Positions 1,298 to 48,707 of a stretch of DNA of 64,000 nucleotides are shown in pieces (the first letter of the stretch is position 1; each line of letters opens with the position of its first letter). Below the pieces are notes generated by a model, which had not been told where the DNA came from, ran no database searches, and saw nothing but the letters and a program-made list of their open reading frames with translations. Origin of the DNA: a virus. The position numbers were made by a program, and so were the translations under genes. The stretch is taken from IMG/VR virus record IMGVR_UViG_3300021962_000046, positions 1 to 64,000 of that record; one strand, given 5' to 3'.

Positions 1298-3562
<2,265 letters not shown>

Positions 3563-3563
3563 C

Positions 3564-4190
3564 ATGAGCGAAGTATCAACAAATAAAAAGTTTAACTTAG
3601 TACAATGGTATGCAAGTGGAGGTCTGCTTTTATGGAGCGGAAGTCCAGGATATGGGATATTACAAGATGGCACAACATATGCGTCTGGAAGACTGGAAAG
3701 AATTCAATGGTTTACCTCTAACGGTCAATCAAGAATATGGGCCTCTGGAGCAACAATCGCATTTTTCCAGAATTTTTCAGGTTACTTAGGTTATACATTT
3801 ACGATCAACACAAACAATATAACTTCTTCTGGTTTTCCTTTATACAACACAAATCTACCTGTTTTAGATGCACAACAGGTAAATGCACGAATAGACATAT
3901 TGCAATTCCAAGGCCCAACAACAAATATTCCACAAAATTTTAACGGAAAGGTTATAAAAGCTTGGAAGGCATCAAACAATGGAAACTCATTGCAGACATA
4001 TACATCTGGTGCTGCTCTTAATTTTTTTAATACATTCCAATCTGGAACAACTTATTTAATAGAAAGTGCATCGGGTAGTTTTCCTTACGCTTTTTATAAT
4101 TTAACACCTAATCAAAATTTACCAATACAGCAACCTGATGCTGCTTATGTAAATCAATCGTACACATATCAACTTTCATCAGAGGGATAA
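3564..4190 (+). CDS. Putative anchor/adaptor protein, paralogous to the N-terminus of 1298..3562; ends in the first strands of a He_PIG-type Ig domain
   Basis: Aligns by eye with the 1298 ORF (NKKF..., GT.YASG, IWASG, NFF.T..SGT.Y.I). C-terminus is PDAAYVNQSYTYQLSSEG. Confidence 0.7.
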   Translation: MSEVSTNKKFNLVQWYASGGLLLWSGSPGYGILQDGTTYASGRLERIQWFTSNGQSRIWASGATIAFFQNFSGYLGYTFTINTNNITSSGFPLYNTNLPVLDAQQVNARIDILQFQGPTTNIPQNFNGKVIKAWKASNNGNSLQTYTSGAALNFFNTFQSGTTYLIESASGSFPYAFYNLTPNQNLPIQQPDAAYVNQSYTYQLSSEG

Positions 4191-4193
4191 GAA

Positions 4194-7100
4194 ATGGCAG
4201 TTACTGACTACACATGGAACATTCCAGTAGGCAAGCCAACATGGCTAAATATAGACCCAACAAATGGCTTGTTGACTGGCACACCATCTTCTTCAGATAC
4301 TGGATTTTATTATTTTACAGTAACGGCAACAAACAGGCAAACAGGACAAGTTCTTACTAGGGAATTATCTGTAGGTGTTTCTCAACCTGTATATCCATAC
4401 AATTTAGGTCTTTTATTAAACTGGTATGACAATACCTCCCTATCTAAGTTGGCATCTGGCGATCCTGTATCTTTGTGGGTTGACAAAGGATTAAGACCAA
4501 CAAATTTAGGTCAAACAAACATTTCACAAAGACCAGCAGCATTCATAATTCCAAATGGTGGAAAAGCAGTACAGTTTGAATCTGTAAATATGGAAAATTT
4601 GATTGGCTTAAACACAGTCAATCAAACAATATATCAAAAATGTACAGTTGCATTCTGGTATAATACTTCTTCAACAAGTTCATCCAATCTTTTTGGCCTA
4701 AACAATCAAGATTTAGTCTTACAGGACAGCTTTGGAACATTCCAAAAAGAAAACAATTCTGTGGTTTTTGACAGATACAAGACAAATGGAAACATTCAAA
4801 TAGCAAGTGTTTCAACAACACCCGCTTCTAACTCTTGGCAATTCTTGTCAGCTGTAATAAGTAAAAATTTGAATGGGAATTATGATGTAAGCATTTATGC
4901 TTATGACAAACTAACAAGCACAATGAATTTGATAGGACAAAATCCCAATTCATTTACTTTGGCAGCAAATTCAAATGTGACAGAACTTGTTTATAGACAA
5001 GCAGTCACTATGGGTGCTGCATATAATGGCAACCAAGATGTTGTTGGTTTTTTTGATGGTTATATTTCATCTTCATTTATATATGGAAGTGAATTATCCC
5101 AGTCACAACTTTTGACATTAGCTCAAAATTCAGATCCAACACAACCAGTTTCCACAACAACATCTACAACACCAGTTCCAGCATACTTTTATGTATTAAA
5201 TTCAGTAGAACCAGTTCCAACAACGACTCCAGCACCACCTCCATTCAATCCAAACTCATTAGGCAATCTAGTCAACTGGTATGATGCCAACGATCTTTCG
5301 GTGTATCAAGATGGTGCATCTGTATCTGTGTGGAACGACAAGGCGACTGCCTTGCCACCCGGAACACAAACACAAAACAGGCTAAACTTAACATTAAGCA
5401 CAAGTTCTTATGCTGGGAATGTTCCACCAGTAAAAAGAACTGATGGTAAACCATATTTGGATTTTACAGCCAATAACACAGGCTTCCTAGTATCAAATGC
5501 ATCTTACAATGTAACAAATTTCACATATAAAACATATGCTGCATGGATTTGGATTGATTCTCCTGAAGAAGGAACTTCTTCCAGTTTCAGAAATGCATTC
5601 GGATATGTAAACACAGATGGTTCTAAGACAAATTTCTGCTCATTAGGATTACAGCCTACAAATAACGCAAGACCGGGTTTTTTAAAATATAATGCCAATT
5701 CAACAAGTGTTGCGCCATTCTTCCAAGGTTCAACATCGGTAGGCCCACAAGGAACATGGTGTTTTGTAGCAATAACACTAGATGATTCAAATCTTTCAAA
5801 CAGACTGCCAACAATTTATTATGATATTAATGGAATAGTACAACAGAGAAGATTTGATACACTTTTTGTAGTCGATTCAACTCCAACAAATTGTTCGGTT
5901 GGTATCGGTGGTAGTTTAATTTCAAACGGTTCAGGTGGATTCAATTTCTTAAAGTGGGCTGGAAAAATATCTTCTTGCTTCTTCTATGCATCTCAAACAC
6001 AATCACAAGGAATGTTATCTCTTTCACAACTTCAAGAATTAAGAGACAGAACATATCCCGGCATAAATGATCCAAAAGTACCAACACCAGCACCGTTTAA
6101 TCCTGCAACATTAGGAACATTAACTACATGGCTTGACCAAAATTATTTGTTTGGATGCTACCCAGGCTATAAAGTTTTGCAGCTTCAAAACAAAGGAAGT
6201 CTTGGTGGTTACGCATATTCTTATGATTATTATAATCCAAGCAATCCATATGGAACATCTGCGCTAACTGTCGATCAACAAGATTATTATCCAGCTTTGT
6301 CATTCAATGGCACAAGTGATGGTTACACATTTAATCAAACACAAAGCATAAGTCAATCACAAGCATATACTGTTGCTGGTTGGGTATTTACCCCACCTGT
6401 TTCAACAACCACATCTACTACTTCAACTACATCTACAACTTCTTCCACTTCTTCCACTTCTTCCACTTCTTCCACTTCTTCCACTTCATCTACAACGCCA
6501 CAACCACTTAACAGAAGTTTCTTTGGTTCTTATTCAAGCATAAATGAAATACCATATGGAATTGGTCTAAACAAACAAACAGCAATATCAGAAACATACT
6601 ATCAAACTGGAAATCCACAAACAATATCCAGTAATACACCAATAAACACAGCTTATGGAACATGGTCATTTGTTGCAATAACAAGACAAAATGGAACTGG
6701 GTCTTCAACAGTATTATATGAAGACATAAGTGGAATTGTCAGCCAAGTAGGATCTGCTGTAATAAGCCAAACATCAGCCAATTACACAAATGTCAAAAAC
6801 TGGATCGGCAAATATTCTCCACAAAACTTAGGTGCCAAATATTTTAACGGTTATGTTGGTTCACAATTTGTCTATTCTCAAGCCTTGAATATTGGACAGC
6901 TTCAAATACTAAGAGATTCGACAAACCCAGGCGGTCCTCCAAATGAAGGTCAATTTAGTATTGATTGGGTAGCAACGGCAGGACAAACAAAAACAATACA
7001 AACATCAACAGGCTTGTTGACATCTATAAATTGGGGAGATGGAACAACAACATTTACTGATGGAATAACAACATCTTTTACACACACATACATTAATGCT

Positions 7101-10100
7101 GGAACATATACTGTTAATTTGAATTGTTCTTCAATTGTTGCGCCAAATACAAGCTTAACAATATCTAATCAAAATGTAATCAGAGTAAATACAACTAAAA
7201 TTCCTTCAGTAATAAAAGAACTTGATTTGTCACAAAACAATATCACATCTGTTTCTTTCTATGGAACTAGCATAAACAAAATAAAACTTGGAACTAATCC
7301 ACTAACATCACTAAACACAAGCATTCTTCCAAATATAACATTATTGGATTTGAGCAATTGTAATTTGATAACATCCTTAGATCTTACACAAAACACAGAA
7401 CTTTTAACTCTGAACTTAAATGGATGTACTCTTCTTGATAACATAACAAACTATCAAACTCTTACAAATCTTACATTCCTTGATATATCTGGGACACAAT
7501 TAAATTATAACAATTTAACATATTTCACAAACTTGCAAATATTTTATGGACAAAACGCAAAGATTTCAGGCGATTTTGTTGCAAACAACATGTCAAGTTT
7601 GACAACAATAAACATTGCAAACACAATTCCAACAACCACGACAACTCCACAACCAACAACAAGCACAACAACATCAACAAGCTCAACTTCAACAACAATA
7701 CCACCATTTTTCACAACGAACTGTAGGATTCTACTTGATGGAACAACATATTCTGGCTCTGGTACTACTTGGAATAGCTCGGTTGGTTCTCTAACGGGAA
7801 CACTAGTAAACAGCCCAACATATGATTCAACTCAAAAAGGATTCATACTCAATGGTGTTAATCAGTATATAAATTTAGGAAATGATTCAAGTATTGGGTT
7901 TTCAGGAAACAATCCATTCACAATACAAGCCTTCATAAAAGTAACACAAACAGGAATTGGAAATCAAGCAATAATAAGCAGATGGAACGAAAATGTTGGT
8001 GGAAGTTACCTGTTATACAAGAACACATTTGAAGATTTAAAAGCCAACAGAAATCCTGATTATACTGCACAAAGTCCATATAGCATTCCATTCAATGAAC
8101 AAATTCTTGTAACTATGGTTTACGATGGCAACCTAACAAGAATATACATCGATGATAATTCTGGCGTACCAATAACAGATATTTCAAGTACTGCATTTGC
8201 AGGAAACACATTGGTTGGTTCTTATTTGGTTAATTCAGTAATGTCTGGATTTTTCCAAGGCGAAATATATTCTGTTGCAGTTTATGGACAACCTTTAACA
8301 ATAGATCAAATTAGACAGAATTACAGGGCATGTATTGCAAGATATCAGATACCTCCAGAACCAACAACTACAACATCTACAACAAGCACATCAACAAGTT
8401 CTACAAGCTCTACCACAAGTTCAACGACAAGTTCTACAACCCCAATACCAGTTGGAATTACCAGCATAAATGTGTCTGGTAGTACAGCATTGACAACAAT
8501 AGACTTAACATCAAACAGCATATCATTGTTTGATGGAACAGGCCTTGTAAATCTTTCATCTTTAAATGTTTCTTACAACCCAAGCTTCTCACAGTCTGGT
8601 CTTGTTACATATAACTATCCATCATTGTTGACACTAAATGGAACAGGATGTAATTTCACAACCTTTGATGCTAGAACAACAACTGGTAATTTGTCTTATT
8701 TAAGAACACTTATATTAGATAGAAATTATTCTTTAACGACAATACTTGCAGACAACAATCCGAACTTATTGTCTATTTCTGCTAGTTATTGCGACCTTAG
8801 CAACCTTGATATTTCAAATTCAAGCAGTCTGGTTGTCAATAACCTCACAACAGTTGTAGCCAATTATAATCCGAATTTATCTTCGATAAATCTTACCAAT
8901 GTATTCAAACTTCAAAATCTAAGCCTTGTTGGTTGTAATTTGAATACATCTGAAATTTCAAATATAGTTGTGAAAATATACAATGGTGTTCAACTTTATG
9001 GCACAAGAAATGGCATATTAAGTGTTAACAATCAACTTGAATGGGCACCACCAGATCAAGGAACATTGACAACAATAAACATATTGAAATCAAATTATTC
9101 TTGGTCTGTCATAACAGATGAATATGCGCCATTTTTCATATGGAAATCTGTTGCTGCTGGCGAAACAAAAGGATTTACAATACAAGGCAAGATCAGCAAT
9201 ATTCGCTGGGGTGATGGCACAACATCTGCCGGTCCTTTCAAGGATCAAACAATAACACACACATATACTTCGGCAATAAACAATGCTGTCGTTCTATTTA
9301 ATATTGATTATCCTGTTGTTCCAGATGATCCAACAAACAGATTGACAGAATTCCTTGCAACAGTTGAAAACAACGGCGTGGGAATAAGCGATATAAACAA
9401 TCTTCAAAACTATGTTCAGACAATACAATTAGATAATTCTTACATAACAAAATGGGACAAGACAATTGAAAGCTTGCAGATTTTGATTTTAAGAAATTAC
9501 AAGGGATATTTGACCAATGTAGAAGCTTTGAATCATACATTCCTAACAACATTGGAGCTTTCTGCATCAGACACAGCTGTAGGTTCAGCATTAACAAATG
9601 TAAACATAACCAACTTGAATTCATTGATTGTGTTGAATGTTCAAAATGCATCGGGCTTGGCTGGAACTGGATCTGGAACCAGTCCTTTTTCAAAGATAAC
9701 AGGCTTTGCTGACAACACATCAATAATAAACTTGAACATAAACAATACTGGAATTCAGGTAAATGATTTAAGAACCATAAACAAAGCTAATTTAGTTAAT
9801 TATTATGCACAAGGAAACAATTGTTCTGGCGAATTCAATGCCACAAACACAATTGTTGAGGTTGTTGATATTTCAAACAATAACTTTACTTCTGCTATTT
9901 TCGATGGTTGTGTAAACATATTCGAAGTTTATTTAATAAACAACGCATTAAACAGAACAGAAATAGATAATGTTTTAACCACAATAAGAAATTTGGCGAC
10001 AACAAATTCTATTTATGAAGGATTTATAGATTTAAGAAGCCAAGCAAACAATCAAACGCACGGCTATACAAGCACATTCGGATATATTCAAGATTTAGGA

Positions 10101-13100
10101 TACAGATTAGAATGGGGAGTTCTTATTGATTATGATCCTGACTGGGTCATTACTATTACTCATTCAAAAAATTCCAACTCAGCAATATTTGCTGCTAATT
10201 CTATTAGTTGGTTTACACAGCAAGTTGGCATACCTCTTGTTTTTGAAGGTTCTTTTGAAGGACAACTCAACGATTTAGCTTTTATTGGTACTGGGCCTTA
10301 TGTAACAAAATTCTATCCCGGTTCTTCTCTTACAGATTTAGGATATGATTCAACATTAGAATCAATTATAATTAACAATTTTAATCTGTTTGAAATAGAA
10401 GGACTTCCTTCAACAGTAACAAGTTTAAACCTAAACAACAATTTAATTGAAAATATAAACTTGGAAGAATGTACTAATCTTCAAGATTTATCCATTAATG
10501 TCAATCAAATTCAAAATATAGATTTGTCAGCAAACACATCATTGACATCTCTTCAAATAGCTGAAAACAATTTGTTAAATCTTGACATCGCTGCGAATAC
10601 TCTTCTTACAAGTATAAATTGTTCTTACAATACAAACTTAATCACATTGAATGGATTTGTATTTAACAGAATGATTTACATAGATTTTAGTGGAACAAAA
10701 CTAACTTCTTATATTCCAATAGATTGTACTGGAGCAACCGATCTGACCTATTTGGGTGCAAGAGAAATCAACATTTCCAGCACTCTTAATTTTTCTGGTT
10801 TACAAAACCTTGTCGCTGTTGATGTAACATACAACATGCTTGGCGATATTTATTTTGAAGATTGTTCAAGTATAAAATACATACTGGCATCTTATAATAG
10901 CTTAAGCATAGTATCCATTAATTCAATATTGGCACAAGCTGTCATAAACGAGCAAACCAACAACATAACTTTTGGAATTATAAATTTACAAAACCAAAAT
11001 CCATTGTCTTATCCAACAGGACAAGGAATTGTAGATAAGCAAATTCTTGTGTCTTCACCATTCAACTGGACAGTAAATACAGATTCTGCTCCTGTGGCAC
11101 CCACAACATCAACCACAACAACATCTTCAACAACATCAACTACAATAGCTCCATCTATTGCTGTATTAACGAATTTTGGCAAAAATGCACCACTAACAAA
11201 TCAATATGCAATAACACCAGGAAGCACAACTGTTTTTTCAATTGATTATGATAATAGTGGTTGTACTGTTGGATATTTTAATTTTATCCAATTTATCATG
11301 TATGCAGGAACACTTCCTTCTGGATCTGATCCTTACGGGACATATCTTCAATTTTCATTTGATGGAGGCGTAACCTATCAAACAATTTATGGTCTTGCAA
11401 ATACCTCTCCCGGTCCTTGGATATCAACTACTGCCACAGTAACATTTAATCTTAGTGGAATAAAAGTTCCTGTTGGTCAGAGAAGCATTTACATGAAATG
11501 GGCCGATGGCCCAACAGGAAGCAGAACTGTCTATTTAAATTGTACATCGACATTATTCCAGTACTCAGCACAAGCTTCATGGGCAGAAACAGGATATTTA
11601 AATCTACCTTCTACACCAATTTACCAGCTTGTGGCACAAAGCACAACATTTACAAGACCAACAACAACTACTACAACTCCAGCCCCAACAACAACAACAA
11701 GCACAACATTTGCTCCTACAGGAACTGTAGTTACATATGATTCACTTGCAGCCCAGCCCGGAAACGGAAGTAACATTCCAACATTTAATACTGATGCATA
11801 TCCTTCTTACCCTTACCTACTTGATATTAAATTAAACCCTGGCATTTATTCTTCTGCGAACATGCGTGTAAGGATATCTTTTAAAGCATGGATTACAGCA
11901 TATATTGGACAATTTGCAGGACAAATTAAACTTAATTTTAGTACAGACAATGTTAATTTCACATATATAGAAAGTAGTGGATACCCAGCGTGGTGGGCTG
12001 ATGAAGATGTATATACTGGCTCATGGTATTTTACACCAAATTTCCAACCAACTGTATATCAAGATTTTGTTATTTATTTCAAACAATCACTTGAAAATAC
12101 CAATAGATACCTTCTAGTTAATGTTTACTCAGTAGGAAATATATGGTGGACACAGAAAAATAATAGTTGGGATCGTCAATGGGTTATGAAGCTGGAAAAT
12201 GATGCAGCCACGGTACAACCAAGAGCAACAACAACATCAACAACGACCACCACATCAACCACAACAACTTCTACTACAACAACACCTATTCCAAGCCTAA
12301 TCGTTTTGAATAGCTCAAATTATGCAAATGCAGGATCAACAACGATATCCAATGAAAATTATGTATTTGGAATATCTTATATAACAAATTATACTTGGTA
12401 CAACACACCATTAAACTACATTGAAATATTACTTACAAACGAATCTGGAACTGCTATTCAAGAATTGCAGCTTGATATTGGAAATTCTATTGAAGGTCCA
12501 TTCACAAGAGTTTCAGGAATTCCAACAACATTCTGGGATGATAACACAACTGCTTTTGTAAGATTTGATTTAAGTTTTATAAGAGCGTCAGGAAAAGAAC
12601 TGGTTGTTGATAACATTTACTTCAAACCAGTTTCTGGCCAACCTTTGTTTGCTTTGAACTATACTACAGTTGCAAATGCAGCAACAAATATTTGGCTAGA
12701 CTCTGGGACATTTAATTTACCAAATACATTATCAGCAATATACAAATTAGTATCTACATACCCTTACATACCACAAAATCCAATACAGGTATTAAGACCA
12801 AATCCTAATTTTACTCCAACAAGTATTGATGGGAAAGGCGTTATATTTAATGCCAATGGAACAGCAAATGGTCCGATTAGTAATATAATCCTTCTTTTAA
12901 GAAACATAACTCCAAATGAAACATTCTATTCAGTAACGATAGAAATGAGTACAGATGGCGTAAACTATCTGCCATTTTTAGGACTACCAACCACACTTTG
13001 GACATATTTATCTTATGCTTATGTTTCTTTCGACATAAGAAAGCTAGGAATAATTCCTAATGGTTACGAAAACACAACAATATATTTCAGATATTCCAAC

Positions 13101-16100
13101 ACAACTCAGCTAATAGCAATTTCACAAGCTGATCCAACACTTGGAAGTTCATACTTGTGGACAGATGTTGGCACAGTTAATAGTAGTGGAAAGCTTTCTT
13201 ACATAATAGAAACAAGCTATGCAAACATTTACACATATCCATACTATTCCGATAATTCATCAACTCCTACTGTTTGGTTATTAGATGCAAGCAATATTGT
13301 TAGTTACTCAGGTTCTGGAAACACATGGTACAATCTTGCGCCAAACGATGGAACAAACACTTCTGTAACATTGCAAAATTCACCACAATATTTTGTTTCA
13401 GAAAAGTGTTTCAATCTAAATGGAACAAATCAATCTTTTGTTTTCCCATCTCAGAACTTCATTATAGGTGCAAGACAACCATACACAGCACAAGTATTGT
13501 TCTCTTTAAATTCCTATCCTGCTTCTGGTCAATCATTTACGATATTTACAAATGAAAATATCAATTCAAGCCCAGCGGGTCAATTCCGCATATGGATAGA
13601 CAGTTCAAGACAAATTAAAGGAAATAGAGATACAGCATATCCTTGGTTACTAACAAATACACCAGCCATTTCTTTAAACACACCATATCTTGCAACATTT
13701 GTGTATGATGGAACATTCATGCAGCTTTATGTGAATGATTATCCAGTTGGATCTCAGGCAAGATCTGATACAAATAGTTATTCAGGATCATTTACTCCTG
13801 TTATAGGTGCAAGATATCAAGGAAGTTCTTTGGTAGAAAACCTAAATGGAAAGATTTACCAAGCTGCCTTCTATAGAAGAGCCTTGTCTCAGTCAGACAT
13901 AGTTCAATCATGGAAAGTTGTCACACAAAACTTCAATATTTTGCCAACCACAACTACAACCACATCCACAACTACAACACCAGTACCATATGCACAATAT
14001 GTTTTAGATAATAGTATTGTTATAGCAGATGGTGTTGCTACAAATAACACAAATGCGGAAATTTCTTCTGCACAAACAAGTGCTTATGGAATACAATACA
14101 GCAATTATGGATGTGTTGTAGGTTCTTTAAGAACATTGTCATTGTACATAAATCAACCAAATTCTAATCCATATAATTGGCCAGATGGATATTACACAAA
14201 TGTTACATTACAGTTTTCAACGAATGGAATAAATTATACTCCAATTACTGGCAGAACAGAAAATGGTCAGGAGCTATTTGGTGTTCAAAAAGTAACTTTT
14301 GATTTATCTTCATTGTCTTACAGTTCACCAAATGGGACTATTTATTTCAAATATTACAATGAGACAAGAACACTTTATTGGGTGACCACAAACATAGGAA
14401 TTGATGCAAGTTTGGTTTGGGGTGAAGCTGGTCAGGTATTAACTCCATCTGGATACAAGGGAATTTATCAATTAAGTGCAAACAGCACCGATTTTGATAG
14501 ACCAAAAGAACCAACTACAACCACAACAACAACTACTACAACAACTACACTTCCCCCCGGAAACTATATTGTTCTAGACAATCTATGGAAAACTCAAGGA
14601 AATGCCAACGCATATCCTTTGAATCCAGATGGAACTGCTGTTGAATTGAGAATTAATCCTAACGACTACTCATCTGGTGATGTGGACATGCAAATTACAC
14701 TTAATATGTTTGTTAATGGAACATGCAATCCATCTGGAAATATTGTTCTTGAGTTCAGTTTTGACAATGTAAACTGGATACCAGTTGAAGGAACCACATA
14801 TTCTGGTATTTGGAATGGACCAAGCGACATAAAAGCTGTAACTTTTGACATTTCAACTTCTTATGTAATACCAAGAAATGCAACAAATCCAATTTATGTC
14901 CGTGCGCCAATTAATACATATACAGGGTCTTGCATACCTTATGTTATGTTTAATAATGAAGCTTCTGGAACCACACAATATTGGGATCAAAGCAAATACA
15001 ATGAAGGCTACATGCTAACTAAAATAGTTGCTGATGCATCTATGATACAACCAGTAGCTCAAGCAACCAATGATGCACCTCCAGCACTATCTTTTTCAAA
15101 TGCAACAACAACACCATACCCATCTTTGGTTTTGAATAGCACACAAGCCACATCAAATGGAACATTGCCTCTAACAGCAACTTCCAACAAATACACAATA
15201 ACATATTCAGTTCCATTCTCATATTATGGAACCAATTTAAACAAGCTAAAAATACTTCTCAGAAACAATATGTCTTCTGTAAAGAATTCAACAAATATGT
15301 ATTTTAGCACAGATAATACAAATTACATACTTGTAACTGGAATTCCTCAGTCAACATGGCTCTCTGGAACTTCTGTTCTTGTTGAATTTGATTTGAGCAA
15401 CCTTGTAGTATTACAACAAGCAACAAATAACATTTATTTTTATCCAGCATCTACTGATTTGAATACTGCTGTTGATTATTCAAACGGATCAGGAAAAGCC
15501 ACATTAATATTCACAGATTTGCAACCAACAATCCCAGGAACAAACATAAGTTTTATTTATAACTTAACAGCTGGACAACCAATAAATACGACCAAAATTT
15601 TAACATTAAACAATACTAAATATAGTAATACAGGACAAATAGGATACATACAATTGGACACTCCAAAAACAATAACATTTACCTCAACAAGCTCCACAGG
15701 TGCAATATCCAATCTGGTATTAACACTCCAGAATAATTCCAATCGTAATTTGTATGGTGTTGGGTTGGACTTTAGCACAAATAATGGCGCATCATATTCA
15801 ACATTAATAGGCTATCCAGAAGCAACATGGAAGAATGGAGAAGTAAAAGACATAATATTTGATATTTCTTCTCTGAATATAGTGCCAACAGATGGAATAC
15901 AAAAATCAATTATTGTAAGAAACAATACAACATATCAATCAAACACAGACATTTCATGGAAACTATCAAGCACAGGAAATGCATCATATATTTGGACAGA
16001 TAATTCAGTATCATATACAGTTCCGGGTGGTACTGGATATGCCTTGTATTCGATTTCTACATCAAATATTTCGTCACCTCCTGTTGTAAACAATGGGAAA

Positions 16101-19100
16101 ATACTAGAACTTGATGCAAGTAATTCTGCAAGTTATCCAGGTTATGGAGCTTATTGGAAAGATGTTTCAGGAAGCAGACAACTTGCATTGCTTGTAAACA
16201 GTCCATCATTTGACACAACCTCAAAATCTTTCTTGCTTGATGGAAGCACACAATACATTAAGTTAACAAACTCATCCTTGTATAACTTTTCTGGAAATCA
16301 GTCATTTACATTGCTGGTTTATGGCAAAGTAAATGAAACAGGATTGGATAGCGGTATCATAACAATGCTAAACGAAGGCGTTGGTTATGAATATGCATTA
16401 AATTTGGACTACTCTGGTAAGTTGTTTGGAATTAGAAATGACGCATACCAAATACCAGCTACAACATCAAAAATAGATTTTACAGAAAAGCATCTTTTTG
16501 GTATTGTTTATGATGGAGTAAACAAAAGATTACAAATCTATATCGATGGAATACCAGCTAGTGAAAAAGTTTATTCTGACACAATATTGCCAGACTTACA
16601 AGACCTATTAATAGGTGCATACAAGCAGAACAGCATAATTTCAGGATTTTTATCATCAAGAATAAGTTATGTTTCAGCATATAATAGAAATTTATCTACA
16701 GATGAAATCAAACAATGTTATGTTTCAATTTATTCAAAATTCATAAATGCATATCCAACCACAACAACTCCAGCACCTTCTTTGGTTACAACAAATCTAC
16801 AAGCATTATTCAATGCAAAAGATTATTCAGGTGGAATATATTGGGTAGATAGTATTTCAAACATACAGGCCAGAATTGTAAATTCTGCGACTTATGATAG
16901 TATAAACAAATGTTTTATATTAAATGGAATAAATCAATATTTTGATTTGGGAACTGCTTCACAATTTAATGTTACGGGATCAGCCCCATACACTATACAA
17001 GTTTATTTGAACTTCAACGATATATCTGGGTATCAAACTTTATTTTCTAGCTGGAATACTGGAATAGCTGGCAAACTGCTTTTTATAAAAGATCAAGATA
17101 ATTTTGTAAGATCTAGTAGAAATAGCATTAGTGTAGGCGTATCGCCAACAACAGTAACCTCACAAACTATTTATCTCATAACGCTAACATATGATGGAAC
17201 AGCGATGAGAATATATTTGAACAACACATCTGGAAATGCAATAAATGATCAATTAACAGCTTTAGCAGCAACACCATTTTTAATTGGAGCAAATCTTTCC
17301 TCTAATATTACTACAAATTTCTTAAATGCAAACATATACTCAACAATAGTATACAACAGAGCATTATCTCCTTCCGAAATATCACAAAATTTAAACTACT
17401 TAACAACAATCTACAATCAAACAACAACAACAACATCAACAACACCACAGCCAGAAACAAATGTGTTCTATTTAAATTCTGACATATCTTGTGATGGTGG
17501 AAATGTTAATTTCTGCCCAATCAACATTTCAGGTTATTTGCAAACTTTGGGCGCAACAGAAACACAATTTTTACCTCCAGCATCTGGAAGTACTGGTATT
17601 AGTGCAAACATGGAAGCAGTTGACACTTCTTCTTCCTTTGATTCTTCTCTAAAACCATTGCCACCAAACAGTAGCATTGGAAATGCATACAGAACAGACC
17701 GAGCTTTAAACGGAACATTTTCAGCTGGTTCTTGGAACTTATCAATAAGCTTGCAAAGCACAAGAAGAAAAGGTTCTGGTCATATTGCCACAAGGATATT
17801 CAAATCATCCAATCCAGATGGAACTAATGCAACAGAATTAACAGCAACGACACTAAATGGAAATACATCAGATTTCACTTTGTCTACAATCTCAACATCT
17901 AAAGTTACATGGAACACATCTTCCATAACATTAAACAATGAATACTTGTTTTTCACAGTTGCTTGGGTAATAGATGGATATGCAACAACGACAACAACAA
18001 CACCAATTCCAAGCTTTGTATTATCTGGCTGCGAACTATTGCTTGATGCAAGCGATGCAGATTCTTATCCGGGCTTTGGAAGTGTCTGGTATGACATAAG
18101 CGGAAATCAAAGAGATGCAACAGTAATAAATAGTCCAACATTTAGTGCTGTAAACAAAAGCTTCACACTTAATGGAACAAATCAATATTTCAATCTTGGA
18201 AATAATTCTGCATTTTATAAGAATGGAACTGCGCCTTTTTCTTTATCGATATATTGCGACATAAATTCTACTGCTAATTATAAATCTATAATTTCAAGAC
18301 AAAACAACAATGTTCTTGGAGATTATGAACTATATGTTAATTCATCGAATACTGTTTTTGGAAAAAGAGATGTGTCACCATATGAGACATCTGGTGTTTC
18401 AAATCTAACACCAAATACAAAATATCTAATAACTATGGTTTATGATGGAACATTTTTAAAAGTATTCATAAATGATAAATCTGGAAATGAAATAAATTCT
18501 GGTTCTGTTGTAACTAATTCGCCAAATTTAAATCTACTGGTTGGTGCCAATTACACATCTGATGTTCTAGCTAATTTCTTTGGTGGCAACATCTACGCAG
18601 TAATGTTTTATAATAAAGCACTTGCATTTGAAGAAATCCAAAGAAACATTACTGCTGCAAGATTCAGATTTGGTTTTAGTCCAGAACCTTCCACAACTAC
18701 AACACCATACCCACAAAATTACAATTTGGTATTGTACCCAGATCCAGTTTGCAATATAAATTATAGATTTAAATATGGTTATGTCTCTACTGCTCCATAT
18801 GATTTTTATGGTCCAGAATCTGGATGGTCATTAGCAGCAGGGAATCAGTTAAACACATATGCTTTTTTATGTTTTGGTTTTCCAGTAACAAATGCATATA
18901 CCGCTACAAGCAATGCAATAACTCAAATTTTATATCCAAATAATTATCCTTCGTCTGCACCAAACCCATTAATTGGAATAGGATCTGTGCCAGCTAGTTG
19001 CACAAACTTAGAAATAAACAATCAACCATTAGGAAGAAATGGTTATCCTATAAATCTTAGAAATTTACAAAACCCCAATCAAATTATAAAACTACAAAAC

Positions 19101-21443
19101 TGTGATCCATCTACATTTACAAATGCAGTTCTAAAAGATTGTTTGTATCAAGTTTGGTACAATGCAATTACAAGAAATATAACAAACGGAACGCTTGTAT
19201 TAACTACTAGCAATTCAAGCACAAGATTGAAGGAAGAAGATTATTACCTTTACAATGATTTAGTTCAAAAAGGCTGGACTATAACTTTAGATGCTATTCC
19301 AACCACCACTACCACCACATCAACTACTACCACAGAGGAACCATCTCAGACATTAACAATAAGAAATACAGTTTATTCAAGCGTAGAATCACCAATATTC
19401 AATACCAATGTTGAAATACCACAACAAGGACCACCTTCTGCCTATAAGGGTGTTTTGTATACATATGCAATTCAAAGAAGTGGAGTACCACCTGTTACAA
19501 CCTCAACAACTCCAGCACCGCTTCAAGCAAATATAACAGCTGCTGTTTTAATTCAAAGCGTCACAACCACATCAAGCACAACATCATCGACAGCTGGACC
19601 GGGAACCAGATTTATTTCCATAAAAGTTTCTGATATAGCAACAATAAATTATATTAACTTTGGCGATGGTACAATTATTCGCAATCCATCATCTGAATTC
19701 GCAATAACATATGAATATAAGAACGATGGCCTCTATGATCTTTCAATTTCTGCAAACACTTCTGATATTGAAATAGATTGTAGAAACATAACATACTTGA
19801 CAGTTGAAGATTATATTTCTGGAACACCTGTATCAAGGATTGTTTTAACAAATTCAGCTATTCAATTTGCCGATTTGGATCACGCATTACAAACTTCTTA
19901 TGTTGATTTAAGAAACAATAATATGAATTCAAATTCTGTGACTAGTGCCTTGCAAGCAATAGCTGTAAGTCCAGAATTTAGCGGTTATGTTAATTTGACA
20001 GGGAATTCTATTCCAACAGCCGAAGGCCTAACAGCAGCACAAAATCTGGTCAACAATGGATGGACAGTTCTTATAGACGGTGGTGTTGTGACAACAACAC
20101 CAAGACCTCAATCTGATCATGCCATTTTGTGGGATACCGAAAGTAATCTAACTTGGGATTTCAATTCCTATATCTTATGGGATGAAATAACAACCACAAC
20201 GAATTTATCAAATATAGATTCAACATCTAATGGAACAAATCCACTTCCACAAATGTCTGGCTCTCCAGCTTTCGGAATCGAATTTAATGTTCCTCCTGCG
20301 TTTATACCAAATTATTATGGATATTATAAGTATTTGACATTGAAACTAACAGCAAATAGCAATATAAATGCTGGAACTACAATATCAATACAGGTAAGTA
20401 ATGTTCAAAATCCAGGAAATTCTACTGAGAACTTCATACTTGCTAATGCTTATATTGGTGAAAATATAAATTCTGGAGATGTTTTTGTTGCAAACTTTGA
20501 TATAAGCAGCTTGTATCCTTCATCTGGAACTAATTATATTTGGTTTAAAACAACAAGTGATACAATTAATGTTATCCCACAACTAAACTGGTGTTATAAT
20601 AGCTTCATACTTCCAACAGGAAGTTGGATTTTCAATCAATACTACAATGTTTCAACAGGAAATGGAATATTTTCAATAAGTGTAAACAACTATATTCCAA
20701 CAACTCTTCCTCCACCTACTACAACTCCACTACCAAACTCTTTGTTGTATACTTCAAATGGAATTCTTGAATATGTAAGTTCTGGACCTTTGTTGTGGTA
20801 TAATGTAAATATAACAACAACTAGTACCACTACAACAACAAGTACTACTACAACAACAAGTACTACTACAACAACAAGTACTACTACAACAACAAGTACT
20901 ACTACAACAGAAGCACCAACTAGTACTACTACAACAACTCCACCAATTAGAACAGTACTTGACAGTTCACTTTTGACAAATGATGCTGAAGCACCGATAA
21001 ACAATCCTTCTCAAGTTTATGGCGTAAGCTTTGACACTCTTGGCTTGCAGTTTAGCACAAATCCTCTGCAAGTATTGATATTAAGTTTACAAAACGATAC
21101 AGTTGCAGAAATTACTACATATTCTTTGGATGTAAGCACAAGTTCTACTGGCCCTTGGACAACAATTCAAGGTCAAATATTACAACCTTGGTTGCCAAGT
21201 ATTGACAGAGATATTTACTTTGATGTTAGTGGATTTACAATATCTCAAAATACAAATACCTTGTATTTTAAGTATGTTTCGGGGCAACCAGCAGCATCAT
21301 TTAACATATCGAATTCTGGTAGTTCTACGAGTATTTGGCAAGATACTGGTTATGTTGGAATAGTAGGGACTGGTATTTATAGACTTACAGCATATTCAAA
21401 TATTTCAACAACTACAAGTACAACAACTACTGCAACACCTTAG
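4194..21443 (+). CDS. Giant 5749-aa modular virion adhesin/fibre: partial He_PIG, about 8 LamG/ConA-like domains, PKD-like and LRR blocks, about 10 uncharacterised beta repeats, Thr/Ser linkers
   Basis: WLNIDPTNGLLTGTP (He_PIG); LLNWYD/LLDAS...YSGSG.TW...LNG.NQY...YDG...YNRALS (LamG-like); INWGDG..HTY (PKD); LxxLDLSxN (LRR). SD GAGGG upstream. No signal peptide seen. Confidence 0.85.
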   Translation: MAVTDYTWNIPVGKPTWLNIDPTNGLLTGTPSSSDTGFYYFTVTATNRQTGQVLTRELSVGVSQPVYPYNLGLLLNWYDNTSLSKLASGDPVSLWVDKGLRPTNLGQTNISQRPAAFIIPNGGKAVQFESVNMENLIGLNTVNQTIYQKCTVAFWYNTSSTSSSNLFGLNNQDLVLQDSFGTFQKENNSVVFDRYKTNGNIQIASVSTTPASNSWQFLSAVISKNLNGNYDVSIYAYDKLTSTMNLIGQNPNSFTLAANSNVTELVYRQAVTMGAAYNGNQDVVGFFDGYISSSFIYGSELSQSQLLTLAQNSDPTQPVSTTTSTTPVPAYFYVLNSVEPVPTTTPAPPPFNPNSLGNLVNWYDANDLSVYQDGASVSVWNDKATALPPGTQTQNRLNLTLSTSSYAGNVPPVKRTDGKPYLDFTANNTGFLVSNASYNVTNFTYKTYAAWIWIDSPEEGTSSSFRNAFGYVNTDGSKTNFCSLGLQPTNNARPGFLKYNANSTSVAPFFQGSTSVGPQGTWCFVAITLDDSNLSNRLPTIYYDINGIVQQRRFDTLFVVDSTPTNCSVGIGGSLISNGSGGFNFLKWAGKISSCFFYASQTQSQGMLSLSQLQELRDRTYPGINDPKVPTPAPFNPATLGTLTTWLDQNYLFGCYPGYKVLQLQNKGSLGGYAYSYDYYNPSNPYGTSALTVDQQDYYPALSFNGTSDGYTFNQTQSISQSQAYTVAGWVFTPPVSTTTSTTSTTSTTSSTSSTSSTSSTSSTSSTTPQPLNRSFFGSYSSINEIPYGIGLNKQTAISETYYQTGNPQTISSNTPINTAYGTWSFVAITRQNGTGSSTVLYEDISGIVSQVGSAVISQTSANYTNVKNWIGKYSPQNLGAKYFNGYVGSQFVYSQALNIGQLQILRDSTNPGGPPNEGQFSIDWVATAGQTKTIQTSTGLLTSINWGDGTTTFTDGITTSFTHTYINAGTYTVNLNCSSIVAPNTSLTISNQNVIRVNTTKIPSVIKELDLSQNNITSVSFYGTSINKIKLGTNPLTSLNTSILPNITLLDLSNCNLITSLDLTQNTELLTLNLNGCTLLDNITNYQTLTNLTFLDISGTQLNYNNLTYFTNLQIFYGQNAKISGDFVANNMSSLTTINIANTIPTTTTTPQPTTSTTTSTSSTSTTIPPFFTTNCRILLDGTTYSGSGTTWNSSVGSLTGTLVNSPTYDSTQKGFILNGVNQYINLGNDSSIGFSGNNPFTIQAFIKVTQTGIGNQAIISRWNENVGGSYLLYKNTFEDLKANRNPDYTAQSPYSIPFNEQILVTMVYDGNLTRIYIDDNSGVPITDISSTAFAGNTLVGSYLVNSVMSGFFQGEIYSVAVYGQPLTIDQIRQNYRACIARYQIPPEPTTTTSTTSTSTSSTSSTTSSTTSSTTPIPVGITSINVSGSTALTTIDLTSNSISLFDGTGLVNLSSLNVSYNPSFSQSGLVTYNYPSLLTLNGTGCNFTTFDARTTTGNLSYLRTLILDRNYSLTTILADNNPNLLSISASYCDLSNLDISNSSSLVVNNLTTVVANYNPNLSSINLTNVFKLQNLSLVGCNLNTSEISNIVVKIYNGVQLYGTRNGILSVNNQLEWAPPDQGTLTTINILKSNYSWSVITDEYAPFFIWKSVAAGETKGFTIQGKISNIRWGDGTTSAGPFKDQTITHTYTSAINNAVVLFNIDYPVVPDDPTNRLTEFLATVENNGVGISDINNLQNYVQTIQLDNSYITKWDKTIESLQILILRNYKGYLTNVEALNHTFLTTLELSASDTAVGSALTNVNITNLNSLIVLNVQNASGLAGTGSGTSPFSKITGFADNTSIINLNINNTGIQVNDLRTINKANLVNYYAQGNNCSGEFNATNTIVEVVDISNNNFTSAIFDGCVNIFEVYLINNALNRTEIDNVLTTIRNLATTNSIYEGFIDLRSQANNQTHGYTSTFGYIQDLGYRLEWGVLIDYDPDWVITITHSKNSNSAIFAANSISWFTQQVGIPLVFEGSFEGQLNDLAFIGTGPYVTKFYPGSSLTDLGYDSTLESIIINNFNLFEIEGLPSTVTSLNLNNNLIENINLEECTNLQDLSINVNQIQNIDLSANTSLTSLQIAENNLLNLDIAANTLLTSINCSYNTNLITLNGFVFNRMIYIDFSGTKLTSYIPIDCTGATDLTYLGAREINISSTLNFSGLQNLVAVDVTYNMLGDIYFEDCSSIKYILASYNSLSIVSINSILAQAVINEQTNNITFGIINLQNQNPLSYPTGQGIVDKQILVSSPFNWTVNTDSAPVAPTTSTTTTSSTTSTTIAPSIAVLTNFGKNAPLTNQYAITPGSTTVFSIDYDNSGCTVGYFNFIQFIMYAGTLPSGSDPYGTYLQFSFDGGVTYQTIYGLANTSPGPWISTTATVTFNLSGIKVPVGQRSIYMKWADGPTGSRTVYLNCTSTLFQYSAQASWAETGYLNLPSTPIYQLVAQSTTFTRPTTTTTTPAPTTTTSTTFAPTGTVVTYDSLAAQPGNGSNIPTFNTDAYPSYPYLLDIKLNPGIYSSANMRVRISFKAWITAYIGQFAGQIKLNFSTDNVNFTYIESSGYPAWWADEDVYTGSWYFTPNFQPTVYQDFVIYFKQSLENTNRYLLVNVYSVGNIWWTQKNNSWDRQWVMKLENDAATVQPRATTTSTTTTTSTTTTSTTTTPIPSLIVLNSSNYANAGSTTISNENYVFGISYITNYTWYNTPLNYIEILLTNESGTAIQELQLDIGNSIEGPFTRVSGIPTTFWDDNTTAFVRFDLSFIRASGKELVVDNIYFKPVSGQPLFALNYTTVANAATNIWLDSGTFNLPNTLSAIYKLVSTYPYIPQNPIQVLRPNPNFTPTSIDGKGVIFNANGTANGPISNIILLLRNITPNETFYSVTIEMSTDGVNYLPFLGLPTTLWTYLSYAYVSFDIRKLGIIPNGYENTTIYFRYSNTTQLIAISQADPTLGSSYLWTDVGTVNSSGKLSYIIETSYANIYTYPYYSDNSSTPTVWLLDASNIVSYSGSGNTWYNLAPNDGTNTSVTLQNSPQYFVSEKCFNLNGTNQSFVFPSQNFIIGARQPYTAQVLFSLNSYPASGQSFTIFTNENINSSPAGQFRIWIDSSRQIKGNRDTAYPWLLTNTPAISLNTPYLATFVYDGTFMQLYVNDYPVGSQARSDTNSYSGSFTPVIGARYQGSSLVENLNGKIYQAAFYRRALSQSDIVQSWKVVTQNFNILPTTTTTTSTTTTPVPYAQYVLDNSIVIADGVATNNTNAEISSAQTSAYGIQYSNYGCVVGSLRTLSLYINQPNSNPYNWPDGYYTNVTLQFSTNGINYTPITGRTENGQELFGVQKVTFDLSSLSYSSPNGTIYFKYYNETRTLYWVTTNIGIDASLVWGEAGQVLTPSGYKGIYQLSANSTDFDRPKEPTTTTTTTTTTTTLPPGNYIVLDNLWKTQGNANAYPLNPDGTAVELRINPNDYSSGDVDMQITLNMFVNGTCNPSGNIVLEFSFDNVNWIPVEGTTYSGIWNGPSDIKAVTFDISTSYVIPRNATNPIYVRAPINTYTGSCIPYVMFNNEASGTTQYWDQSKYNEGYMLTKIVADASMIQPVAQATNDAPPALSFSNATTTPYPSLVLNSTQATSNGTLPLTATSNKYTITYSVPFSYYGTNLNKLKILLRNNMSSVKNSTNMYFSTDNTNYILVTGIPQSTWLSGTSVLVEFDLSNLVVLQQATNNIYFYPASTDLNTAVDYSNGSGKATLIFTDLQPTIPGTNISFIYNLTAGQPINTTKILTLNNTKYSNTGQIGYIQLDTPKTITFTSTSSTGAISNLVLTLQNNSNRNLYGVGLDFSTNNGASYSTLIGYPEATWKNGEVKDIIFDISSLNIVPTDGIQKSIIVRNNTTYQSNTDISWKLSSTGNASYIWTDNSVSYTVPGGTGYALYSISTSNISSPPVVNNGKILELDASNSASYPGYGAYWKDVSGSRQLALLVNSPSFDTTSKSFLLDGSTQYIKLTNSSLYNFSGNQSFTLLVYGKVNETGLDSGIITMLNEGVGYEYALNLDYSGKLFGIRNDAYQIPATTSKIDFTEKHLFGIVYDGVNKRLQIYIDGIPASEKVYSDTILPDLQDLLIGAYKQNSIISGFLSSRISYVSAYNRNLSTDEIKQCYVSIYSKFINAYPTTTTPAPSLVTTNLQALFNAKDYSGGIYWVDSISNIQARIVNSATYDSINKCFILNGINQYFDLGTASQFNVTGSAPYTIQVYLNFNDISGYQTLFSSWNTGIAGKLLFIKDQDNFVRSSRNSISVGVSPTTVTSQTIYLITLTYDGTAMRIYLNNTSGNAINDQLTALAATPFLIGANLSSNITTNFLNANIYSTIVYNRALSPSEISQNLNYLTTIYNQTTTTTSTTPQPETNVFYLNSDISCDGGNVNFCPINISGYLQTLGATETQFLPPASGSTGISANMEAVDTSSSFDSSLKPLPPNSSIGNAYRTDRALNGTFSAGSWNLSISLQSTRRKGSGHIATRIFKSSNPDGTNATELTATTLNGNTSDFTLSTISTSKVTWNTSSITLNNEYLFFTVAWVIDGYATTTTTTPIPSFVLSGCELLLDASDADSYPGFGSVWYDISGNQRDATVINSPTFSAVNKSFTLNGTNQYFNLGNNSAFYKNGTAPFSLSIYCDINSTANYKSIISRQNNNVLGDYELYVNSSNTVFGKRDVSPYETSGVSNLTPNTKYLITMVYDGTFLKVFINDKSGNEINSGSVVTNSPNLNLLVGANYTSDVLANFFGGNIYAVMFYNKALAFEEIQRNITAARFRFGFSPEPSTTTTPYPQNYNLVLYPDPVCNINYRFKYGYVSTAPYDFYGPESGWSLAAGNQLNTYAFLCFGFPVTNAYTATSNAITQILYPNNYPSSAPNPLIGIGSVPASCTNLEINNQPLGRNGYPINLRNLQNPNQIIKLQNCDPSTFTNAVLKDCLYQVWYNAITRNITNGTLVLTTSNSSTRLKEEDYYLYNDLVQKGWTITLDAIPTTTTTTSTTTTEEPSQTLTIRNTVYSSVESPIFNTNVEIPQQGPPSAYKGVLYTYAIQRSGVPPVTTSTTPAPLQANITAAVLIQSVTTTSSTTSSTAGPGTRFISIKVSDIATINYINFGDGTIIRNPSSEFAITYEYKNDGLYDLSISANTSDIEIDCRNITYLTVEDYISGTPVSRIVLTNSAIQFADLDHALQTSYVDLRNNNMNSNSVTSALQAIAVSPEFSGYVNLTGNSIPTAEGLTAAQNLVNNGWTVLIDGGVVTTTPRPQSDHAILWDTESNLTWDFNSYILWDEITTTTNLSNIDSTSNGTNPLPQMSGSPAFGIEFNVPPAFIPNYYGYYKYLTLKLTANSNINAGTTISIQVSNVQNPGNSTENFILANAYIGENINSGDVFVANFDISSLYPSSGTNYIWFKTTSDTINVIPQLNWCYNSFILPTGSWIFNQYYNVSTGNGIFSISVNNYIPTTLPPPTTTPLPNSLLYTSNGILEYVSSGPLLWYNVNITTTSTTTTTSTTTTTSTTTTTSTTTTTSTTTTEAPTSTTTTTPPIRTVLDSSLLTNDAEAPINNPSQVYGVSFDTLGLQFSTNPLQVLILSLQNDTVAEITTYSLDVSTSSTGPWTTIQGQILQPWLPSIDRDIYFDVSGFTISQNTNTLYFKYVSGQPAASFNISNSGSSTSIWQDTGYVGIVGTGIYRLTAYSNISTTTSTTTTATP
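6441..6485 (+). repeat. (TCTTCCACT)x5 in-frame 9-bp repeat encoding SST
   Basis: Five perfect copies seen directly. Confidence 0.95.
20832..20903 (+). repeat. (ACAACAACAAGTACTACT)x4 in-frame 18-bp repeat encoding TTTSTT
   Basis: Four perfect copies seen directly. Confidence 0.9.
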
Positions 21444-23634: not shown

Positions 23635-23656
23635 ACAATATATTCAGGAGAATTAG

Positions 23657-26600
23657 ATGCCTTTTACTTGGGAAATAACAAAAGGAAATTTACCAGCTGG
23701 ATTATCACTAGATCCAAATACTGGTGTAGTTTCTGGAATTCCTACAGAAGAACTTGTTTATACAAGTGTTACCGTAAAAGTAAGTGACGGATTTAGTTCT
23801 TCAGAAAGAGAACTTTATTTTGGTTCTTCTCCTAATGAAAAACCATATACGGCAGGGACATTGTTGGATTGGTACGATCCATATGGTTTATTGGAATTAA
23901 GTAATGGAACTGCTGTATCGTCTTGGTCTGACTTCGGATTGAGAAACAAAGATATAAAACAGTCAGTTTCTTCATTGATGCCAAGTGTTTCTTTGACATC
24001 GGGAAATCTTCCAACAATATTGTCATCTGGTGATGATTATCTTTTATCAGATGGAACAGTAAATCATCAACCATATAAGCAAACAACATTGATAATTTGG
24101 GCAAAACCAACCGTAACAAACAACAATAACAGATTTTTATCTTTGTCGTCTGCCAATTCGTTTGGTGATTCATTTGGCGAAATAGGTCAATCTGCTGCTG
24201 GGCAAGCTGGAACATTTACAAGATTTTTCAAGGGAAGTCCTGTAACCAGTCAATCAACAATATTTTCAAATGATAATTTCTCACTAAACAATTGGTATTT
24301 TTATGCAGTAGTTATCAACCCAGACGATTCACAAGGCTATAAAGTAAGATGTTATCGTGACAATGGTGTTGCTGGATCAAATGTAGTTACACTAGAGGCA
24401 TACTCAACAACATTAACTGATTTTACAGAAGTAGACTCACAATTTATAGGTATGCTTGCATCCTTTGATAGTTCTTCTATAGTAAAAAACTTCTTTACAG
24501 GATATGCTGCCGGATCTCACATTTATGGTAGTGCCTTAACAATAAATCAGTTGCAAGAATTAAGAAACAACACAAATCCACAAACAAGAAAAGCTGGATA
24601 CAATGTGTTTACACTAGAATCTAGTGGTGCTGGAGATACTAAGACAATAAATTTAAATGGCACAGCAAGAAAAATAGATTGGGGTGACGGAACATATACA
24701 GAAGGATTTTTAAATGATAGTATAAGTCACACATATAATACAAAAGACTTTTACAATGTAACAGTATATCCTTGGGATCATTATTTCACAGGCGTTGATG
24801 TAAATGGACAAAATGTTCAAAGATGGCTTTATATTCCTGAATATTCTACCAATATGGATTTAAGAAACAATAGTCTTGATGTCTTTCAAACAAGCAATAT
24901 ATTAACTCAAGTTTACAACTATGCGTCTGCATACAATATAAGAAATGGAACATTAAGGTTAGAAGGCCAAAATCCAACTGCAATACCAAACACGGATGGG
25001 CAAAAAGCATGGTATAAGCTTGTAAATCAATATGGCTGGAATGTTACTGCGGATGGTCCACAACCAACATTAGAATTACTTTCATTTACTATCAGTCCGT
25101 CTTTAAACCAAGTAGCTAGAATTGTTCTTAATGGATATGTAGGTCAAATAGATTGGGGAGATGGAGTAGTTACCAATTGTTTTGGTTATTTTAATTATTT
25201 TACTTTTATTCACACATATGAACAATCATACCAAAACATAGTTGTTTCAATAATTGGAGAAATGACATATTTTGAGTGTTCCAACAATTTAAATATTTTA
25301 AATGTTATTTCAGCAAATCCTTCTCTTCAAACCTTTTATATTACTTCTTCATCAATATCAAGCTTTAATTTCACGCTACCAAATCTACAAGAATTATTTT
25401 TAATAAATTGCAGTATTTCATCTTTAAATCTACAACAATTTCCAAATTTAATAACTTTAAGCTTGTACAACAGTCCAACAGTAACCAGTATGACATTCGG
25501 TCAATTCAACCTGTTTCAAACAATTGCTTTAGTAGGATGTTCTATAAATCAATCTACTATAGATTCTTTACTGATCGGTTTAGCGCAAACAAGTAGCAAC
25601 AATATATTAGAACTAAGATTAGACAGAGGAAGCGGTCTTTCTGGCACAAATTCAGCACCAAGCTCTACCGGATTGGCAGCAGCTAATACCATAGCTTGTC
25701 GTGGAATAATAGAAACTTTTACTATATGGAATGGAACACAAAATGTGAATGTCGAATGTGTTAATCCATCGACCACAACCACAACATCAACAACATCGAC
25801 AACAACCACAGAAGCTCCATGCATAAATGTTGTAAGTGCAGAAAGAATAAATTACTCATCATCTGTCTGTTCAAATTTATACTGGAGTAATACTCAACTT
25901 GGTCCACTAGGAGTCCCAGTATATGGAACAATGTCTTTTACTGTTGAAGAAAGTTCAACTTTATATTACACAATAAATTCAAATATACAAGTGTATAATG
26001 GAATTAATTTAAAACTTAACAATAATACTATAAGAAATTTTCCTGGTAGTACTTCCTTCGCATTTGGACAACTAAATGTATCTTATAATGACTTAATATC
26101 AGTAGAATGTTATGTACAAGCAAATAGTGCCATTAGTGCAGGCGAAATAAACGGAACTTTCAACACAGTATTTTTACCAACAACAACGACATTGCCTCCA
26201 CCAGAAACAACTGTTTTATCAAACATAAGTGCAAGTGTGACTGGAAGTGTTGCTCTTCCACCTAATGGTACTTCAACACCATTTCAAATTCAATTCACAG
26301 CACCAGATAATACAGTTAGTTTGGGATATGCATCGCTTACTTTGGCTTTAGTTGCAACATCAAATATTACTCCAACAACATACTTGTCAATAGGATTATC
26401 TTTTGTTCAAAATCCTAGTGAAAGTGATTGGAATGATTATGAGATAAACAGCGTTGGCAATGTTACAGCAGGAACTCCTTTTACAGCAACAATACCTTTA
26501 TCAGAAGAAGTAACATTTGTGCCAAGAAAACCAATGAGTGGAGTAAATTACATCAACATAAGATCAACAAGAATATTCTTCCCAGTAGTACCAACATTCT

Positions 26601-43737: not shown

Positions 43738-43795
43738 AAAACACCTCTTTTGATTTGCTTGCAACCCAAATTTATAACTTAAAAATGAACACGAA

Positions 43796-48704: not shown

Positions 48705-48707
48705 TTT

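Follow-up and report, generated by a model that had tools for sequence, protein, structure and literature searches.

A He_PIG domain divided between two in-frame genes of a very large phage, and its possible completion between two chains

Division of a He_PIG domain between two adjacent genes

The window, that is, the whole stretch of DNA analysed here (64,000 nucleotides (nt), positions 1 to 64,000 of IMG/VR record IMGVR_UViG_3300021962_000046), carries a small gene for a protein of 208 amino acids (aa) followed, in the same reading frame, by the gene of a giant fibre-like protein of 5749 aa. Profile comparisons confirmed that an immunoglobulin-like (Ig-like) domain of the He_PIG family is truly divided between these two in-frame genes, with its upstream half present beyond chance. 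Our preferred reading, to which we give a probability of roughly 0.5, is that the two coupled proteins rejoin by completing this domain in trans, with the 208-aa protein as adaptor. The features of the junction are the following:

3564..4190, plus strand: gene of the 208-aa protein, an open reading frame (ORF) ending in TAA at 4188-4190
3564..4097, plus strand: N-terminal domain (residues 1-178) of the 208-aa protein, without family assignment and a candidate for the part that anchors the putative adaptor
4098..4187, plus strand: C-terminal tail of the 208-aa protein (30 residues, the putative "plug"), with ~10 linker residues and then predicted strands A and B
4182..4186, plus strand: ribosome-binding site GAGGG of the giant gene, within the last codons of the 208-aa gene and 7 nt 5' of the ATG
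4188..4193, plus strand: gene boundary, TAA and a GAA codon, falling in the B-C loop of the He_PIG domain
4194..21443, plus strand: gene of the giant fibre-like protein (5749 aa), beginning with ATG 4194
4194..4391, plus strand: N-terminus of the giant protein (residues 1-66, the putative "socket"), predicted strands C to G; 42.3 and 28.1 bits with our own profiles
4392..21443, plus strand: rest of the giant protein, with LamG-like, PKD-like and LRR modules, other repeats and Thr-rich linkers

The product of ORF 3564-4190 ends in ...YTYQLSSEG and is followed by TAA (4188-4190), GAA (4191-4193), and ATG (4194), all in one shared frame; the frame spanning both genes amounts to 5981 codons with one internal TAA. 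With the giant ORF alone, the Pfam family He_PIG (PF05345) was matched over profile positions 39-84 (34.9 bits), and when the sequence was read across the stop, the match covered positions 12-84, with 41.3 bits in a sequence of 610 aa and 47.6 bits in a piece of 97 aa. The Pfam gathering cut-off for this family, 24 bits, was passed by the giant protein, by the read-through sequence, and by a 1306-aa paralogue of the giant protein encoded farther along the window. The whole domain is absent from any single polypeptide, positions 12-38 lying on the 208-aa protein and positions 39-84/88 downstream.

Two additional He_PIG profiles were made from the repeats of other organisms, with the query left out. 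Addition of the real upstream 30 aa raised the scores from 42.9 to 50.4 bits and from 28.7 to 36.7 bits (gains of 7.5 and 8.0, respectively), and an equal gain was reached in 0 and 1 out of 1000 trials with random 30-mers drawn from the proteins of this phage, and in 6 and 2 out of 1000 with shuffles of the upstream residues themselves. An exhaustive protein search recovered hundreds of bacterial multi-repeat He_PIG proteins, whose repeats align unbroken over query residues ~185-275, the stop being position 209. In a 137-row alignment, the near-invariant Tyr of the domain's first half (strand B in the model below) comes from the 208-aa protein. In the alignments to both query-free profiles, the stop, the Glu, and the Met appear as an insertion, that is, as extra residues with respect to the repeat consensus.

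The 102 joined residues were modelled with AlphaFold2 on the 137-row alignment, giving a complete Ig sandwich with a mean predicted local distance difference test score (pLDDT) of 86.5 and a predicted template modelling score of 0.75. Strand B occupies model residues 22-25 and is followed by strands at 38-44 (C), 50-52, 58-61, 69-79, and 85-95, whereas short strand contacts at residues 10 and 16-17, before strand B, are read as strand A in this model. Mean pLDDT values were 93 and 84 for the blocks of residues 11-30, and 74 for the block of the boundary loop, where the stop, the Glu, and the Met form the loop between strands B and C. Foldseek matched the model to whole Ig/cadherin-like domains at TM 0.57-0.74, among them Rib Long (TM 0.74), dystroglycan, SraP, and GH107 accessory domains.

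In the whole 106.6-kb parent record, He_PIG is significant only as two truncated N-terminal copies and never as a spacer repeat. None of 269 fetched He_PIG proteins starts at the B-C loop; the truncated N-terminal starts among them lie at varied positions and resemble contig ends or mis-called starts, and no general pattern emerges from this sample. The first-pass annotation of this DNA had proposed both that an Ig domain is split over the two genes and that its parts dock in trans: the location of the halves on two in-frame genes held, and the docking stands as a prediction.

Reality of the stop codon and translation signals at the junction

Apart from the in-frame layout, nothing speaks for the TAA being a sequencing or assembly error within one continuous gene, an explanation to which we give a negligible probability. 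An identical 208-aa protein was found on contigs from three sources (JGI/IMG, Logan, and ENA), and a 96% variant protein is likewise exactly 208 residues long. In addition, positions 4188-4190 are unchanged in contigs that span them in four runs from four studies, on estuary, aquatic, and freshwater metagenomes, and one of these contigs belongs to a strain that is ~98% identical, with 8 differences in 465 bases at a depth of 18. The stop is real, and an assembly error, which had been considered from the start, is excluded for practical purposes.

Contigs near-identical to window positions 3900-4500 come from estuary, aquatic, and freshwater metagenomes of four studies, so this phage population is widespread across salinities.

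Given a real stop, part of the ribosomes could still read through or hop the TAA, which would yield a 5981-residue fusion beside the 208-aa product. The shared frame would allow for such recoding, the fused sequence is a complete and confidently folded domain, and the codon before the stop is GGA, which is reportedly also the codon of the take-off site in the bypass of T4 gene 60. However, TAA is the stop codon of 43 among the 62 long ORFs of the record and is, therefore, not reassigned; the predicted fold of the 131 nt round the stop was not better than that of shuffled sequences (z -1.47); and the first 30 nt past the stop contain a single GGA, in a different frame that leads into a stop. 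Moreover, the downstream gene is equipped with a ribosome-binding site and an ATG of its own, and the 1306-aa paralogue starts at the same point without any upstream frame. We consider recoding quite improbable, and stop readthrough, offered as an alternative in the first-pass annotation, found no support.

As for the ribosome-binding site, AGGAG, GGAG, or GAGG at a like spacing precedes many genes of this phage. The same-frame layout of a stop, one codon, and an ATG also occurs at three other gene pairs of the record (G000:C1 70751-71467 and 88017-93170, and window 47193-49268 on the minus strand), and looks like the usual tight coupling of this phage. No terminator was found near the junction, and promoter-like sites near it were not commoner than in shuffles. 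It is likely that two separate polypeptides are made: TAA is the main stop, the region shows no notable RNA structure, the giant gene carries start signals of its own, and the layout looks like the coupling usual in this phage.

A paralogue with the same truncated start

The second of the truncated He_PIG copies belongs to the 1306-aa paralogue, for which the relevant features are:

23646-23650, plus strand: ribosome-binding site AGGAG, the gene's own
23657-27577, plus strand: gene of the 1306-aa paralogue
23657..23839, plus strand: N-terminal part of the paralogue, corresponding to predicted strands C to G

This protein matches He_PIG positions 39-88 from its residue 3 (34.5 bits). No upstream half exists for it, as the frame upstream is full of stops, and the earlier observation that its start falls at this point too, with a separate Shine-Dalgarno sequence and no donor strands upstream, proved correct. 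Along 318 aa, its N-terminus shares 30% identity with that of the giant protein, its residue 3 and residue 6 of the giant protein being the points from which the two are colinear, and a hand count in this pair gave a conservation of about 32% for the half-domain versus 30% for the LamG part. As truncation of both genes at one loop in independent events is unlikely, their common ancestor would already have started there. By this comparison, the truncated start appears to be old and under constraint, and the split is probably old too.

A reassignment of TAG upstream of 23657 was tried and rejected, as the frame there also contains TAA and TGA.

The neighbouring fibre-like genes begin in one of two other ways, either with the domain shared by ORFs 1298 and 3564 or with a short motif present in ORFs 21507, 22684, 28228, and 30388, which we read as fibre-type. 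Neither of these N-terminal ends is found in the giant or in the 1306-aa protein.

These data bear directly on the main rival of trans completion, beside which readthrough and artefact are minor, namely gene fission without docking. Here, a nonsense change would have cut a single ancestral gene (N-terminal domain, He_PIG, LamG, and further parts), translation would restart at the ATG, and the tail would be a leftover that no longer matters on a small protein maybe without any role. Such an origin is compatible with a stop and a start one codon apart in the same frame and with the 754-aa neighbour, in which the paralogous N-terminal domain is joined to further modules in one chain. The stop could also be young, as the stop-bearing strains are 96-100% alike, and no relatives were found that would show its long-term retention. 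In contrast, the 1306-aa paralogue shares the point of start despite an identity of 30%, and a ribosome-binding site of its own precedes it. If the start is old, a useless tail should have decayed, yet family residues including the near-invariant Tyr are retained. The stop, the Glu, and the Met also align as an insertion in the loop, unlike a continuous repeat in which one codon has been substituted. We regard fission with an idle tail as possible but somewhat doubtful.

The 208-residue protein as a candidate adaptor

The N-terminal domain of the 208-aa protein has a paralogue in the gene immediately upstream:

1298..1813, plus strand: paralogous N-terminal domain of the 754-aa protein (ORF 1298-3562), in one chain with further modules via a Thr linker

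Both domains share 34% identity (E 1e-23, with residues 1-172 of the 754-aa protein). The N-terminal domain of the 208-aa protein gave no match in Pfam, PHROG, or the Protein Data Bank (PDB), and no usable match in the Atlas; the sole outside relative is the 96% variant of equal length. The tail of 30 residues lies beyond the domain boundary given by the 754-aa paralogue, as a free C-terminal extension of two strands. The sequence supports, in this way, an adaptor-like make-up for the 208-aa protein (N-terminal domain plus free 30-residue tail), and of its role as an adaptor, as first proposed, this make-up is what was found, the completion in trans being predicted.

The N-terminal domain common to the 208-aa and 754-aa proteins contains two units of ~85 residues that resemble each other weakly (E 0.01-0.02), which seems to be an internal duplication.

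Under the reading of trans completion, the 208-aa and 5749-aa genes would be separate, co-transcribed, and closely coupled, and two polypeptides would result. In the small protein, the last ~20 residues would supply strands A and B to a cadherin-like Ig sandwich; the first 66 residues of the giant protein would form a five-strand socket with strands C to G. Tight translational coupling would bring the two ends near each other, and during or after translation both pieces would complete one domain between the chains. In this manner, the N-terminal domain of the small protein would become the attachment end of the giant fibre, and the small protein would be its adaptor. The binding of the pieces, as well as what the N-terminal domain attaches to, are inferred from this arrangement. 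A prediction of the complex between the 208-aa protein and residues 1-70 of the giant protein, run without controls, gave scores of 0.40, 0.15, and 0.20 with respect to a mark of 0.34 and counts neither way. An AlphaFold2 run on 280 residues of the read-through sequence, with an alignment of 3 rows, gave a pLDDT of 39.5 and an unusable model.

Several observations weigh against this interpretation. The fold predicted for the joined sequence follows from homology, and the model as such says nothing on assembly between chains. The in-frame layout by itself is not special. A profile of the first half-domain alone could not pick out the tail, its top scores being noise, and the tail ranked 76th among the 33,826 windows of the phage proteome, the A-B half being weak and of low information when taken alone. 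The stop-bearing strains differ by 2-4%, and a recent neutral mutation would persist among them too. In addition, scans of viral and metagenome contigs revealed no split or fused relatives outside this phage population, so the comparison of fused with split homologues foreseen in the first-pass annotation found neither kind there. No longer proteins containing the 208-aa sequence were found, a profile of the two N-terminal modules recovered, apart from the protein of the window itself, only He_PIG repeat proteins of bacteria, tblastn against isolated phages gave no match, and LR756511.1, the nearest huge-phage record, holds no relative of the split module. Hence, there is no homologue set showing selection on the split.

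A wider version of trans completion would make the half-Ig N-terminus a general socket and the tail a general plug, so that the 208-aa adaptor could mount either the 5749-aa or the 1306-aa passenger at one virion site, giving mixed or switchable fibres. The plug-like segment at 19401-19484 might, in addition, serve the 1306-aa protein as a branching point on the giant one. We consider this extension unlikely. No convincing donor for the 1306-aa protein was found, and a scan of the proteome in windows of 28 residues was too noisy to name one.

The segment itself (giant residues ~5070-5097), placed between Thr-rich linkers, is tail-like, with 10 of 21 residues shared in a hand alignment and a Gly as its last residue before the linker. 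Its BLAST E-value was 2.5 and it ranked 88th among the 33,826 windows, which is not distinguishable from background.

Comparison with known systems

The closer solved analogue of the proposed joint, closer than pili, is the BppU-BppA pair in the baseplate of the Lactococcus phage Tuc2009. In its crystal structure, BppU ends in a C-terminal hairpin of 25 residues by which one beta-sheet in domain 2 of BppA, an Ig-like domain, is completed, and the resulting composite is similar to a titin Ig domain (PMC4742702). The pair acts as a non-covalent plug and socket, through which an accessory carbohydrate-binding protein is mounted. The likeness lies in a C-terminal extension of two strands on one virion protein and a small Ig-like sandwich in a second protein, of receptor-binding type, with a gene of its own. 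In contrast, the 208-aa protein belongs to no PHROG or Pfam family and has no match in phage records, and no sequence relation to BppU or BppA was found; here, a He_PIG/cadherin-like domain is cut at the B-C loop, and the genes are adjacent and in frame, with a passenger of 5749 residues. In addition, the structure of the Tuc2009 pair is solved, whereas the joint described here is predicted.

The first-pass annotation had compared the junction to donor-strand complementation in pili, and this analogy turned out to be loose. In chaperone-usher pili (Fim, Pap, Caf1), the pilins lack their last (G) strand and receive an N-terminal extension instead, a process that needs a periplasmic chaperone and an usher. 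The common point is an Ig-like fold that is incomplete in one chain and completed by a strand from another. However, the strands missing here are the first two, A and B, the donor would be a C-terminal tail, and the assembly would be cytoplasmic, with a single joint and no polymer. Neither a PapD-like chaperone (PF00345) nor an usher (PF00577) was matched in the 106.6-kb record, a fragment estimated to cover 21% of the genome.

Among phage fibres, the gp34-gp37 chain of T4 and the adaptor proteins of SP6/K1-5-like phages also have a small protein at the attachment end, with the large, receptor-binding distal part encoded separately, and, as proposed here, a separate attachment-end protein lets the distal part be exchanged. 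We know of no description of these joints as one Ig domain cut in two, and no homology was found. Fraser and co-workers are said to have described, in 2006, Ig-like domains on phage structural proteins, some of them added by programmed frameshifts. As in our case, an accessory Ig-like domain is placed where the gene for a virion protein ends, and translation events take place at this boundary, but there a whole domain is appended by recoding, whereas here an ordinary stop and start separate the two halves of the domain, and no recoding signal was observed. Finally, the EC1 domains of classical cadherins are complete domains that reversibly swap an N-terminal strand between like partners; they belong to the same broad fold class, with EC domains among our fold matches, and the difference is that here one domain is encoded in two genes.

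If the completion in trans is true, it would show how a huge phage mounts a multi-lectin appendage of 5749 residues, via a very small, modular connector of two strands plugging into five, and it would explain the exchange of distal fibre parts by recombination at the gene boundary with the anchor undisturbed. It would also provide a natural split-Ig pair of tag and socket for protein engineering, and a second, unrelated case beside the single solved example of Tuc2009.

Genomic setting and other observations

The parent IMG/VR record comprises 106.6 kb, with a completeness of 21% as estimated by CheckV. The right half of the window contains phage replication genes encoding a UvsX-like recombinase, Dda-, DnaB-, and UvsW-type helicases, an SbcC-like nuclease, and a ribonucleotide reductase. 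One of them is used below:

47193-48704, minus strand: gene of the DnaB-like helicase, with its best phage-record match in LR756511.1

The record nearest to this helicase is that of the uncultured 595-kb phage LR756511.1, with 32.5% identity. The window is a fragment of a very large phage, because it carries these replication genes and the nearest match of its DnaB-like helicase is a 595-kb phage; this match and the completeness estimate of 21% suggest a genome of several hundred kb.

The region from 1 to 33 kb is a block of fibre-like genes, all on the same strand and rich in Thr linkers, two of which match PHROG families of virion structural proteins, and it is read as a virion fibre module. 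In the giant protein, residues 347-383 correspond to a match to a PHROG family of this description ("virion structural protein"), and the other matches were Laminin_G_3 (5.2e-38) and, weakly and under the cut-off, LRR_Zer-1 and PKD_4.

Beyond the window, at G000:C1 88017-100717, a block of ~28 residues ending in ...ATVSGG is repeated in four large ORFs, in which the block is followed by long runs of short repeats rich in Ser, Gly, and Ile. These four ORFs are probably a second family of fibre proteins.

Beside the 43 TAA stops given above, the 62 long ORFs of the record end with TGA (17) and TAG (2). The rarity of TAG as a stop is probably due simply to the low G+C content (about 34%).

Finally, the UvsX-like recombinase (window 41431-43764, minus strand) carries at residues 351-539 a LAGLIDADG homing-endonuclease insertion, which is intein-like.

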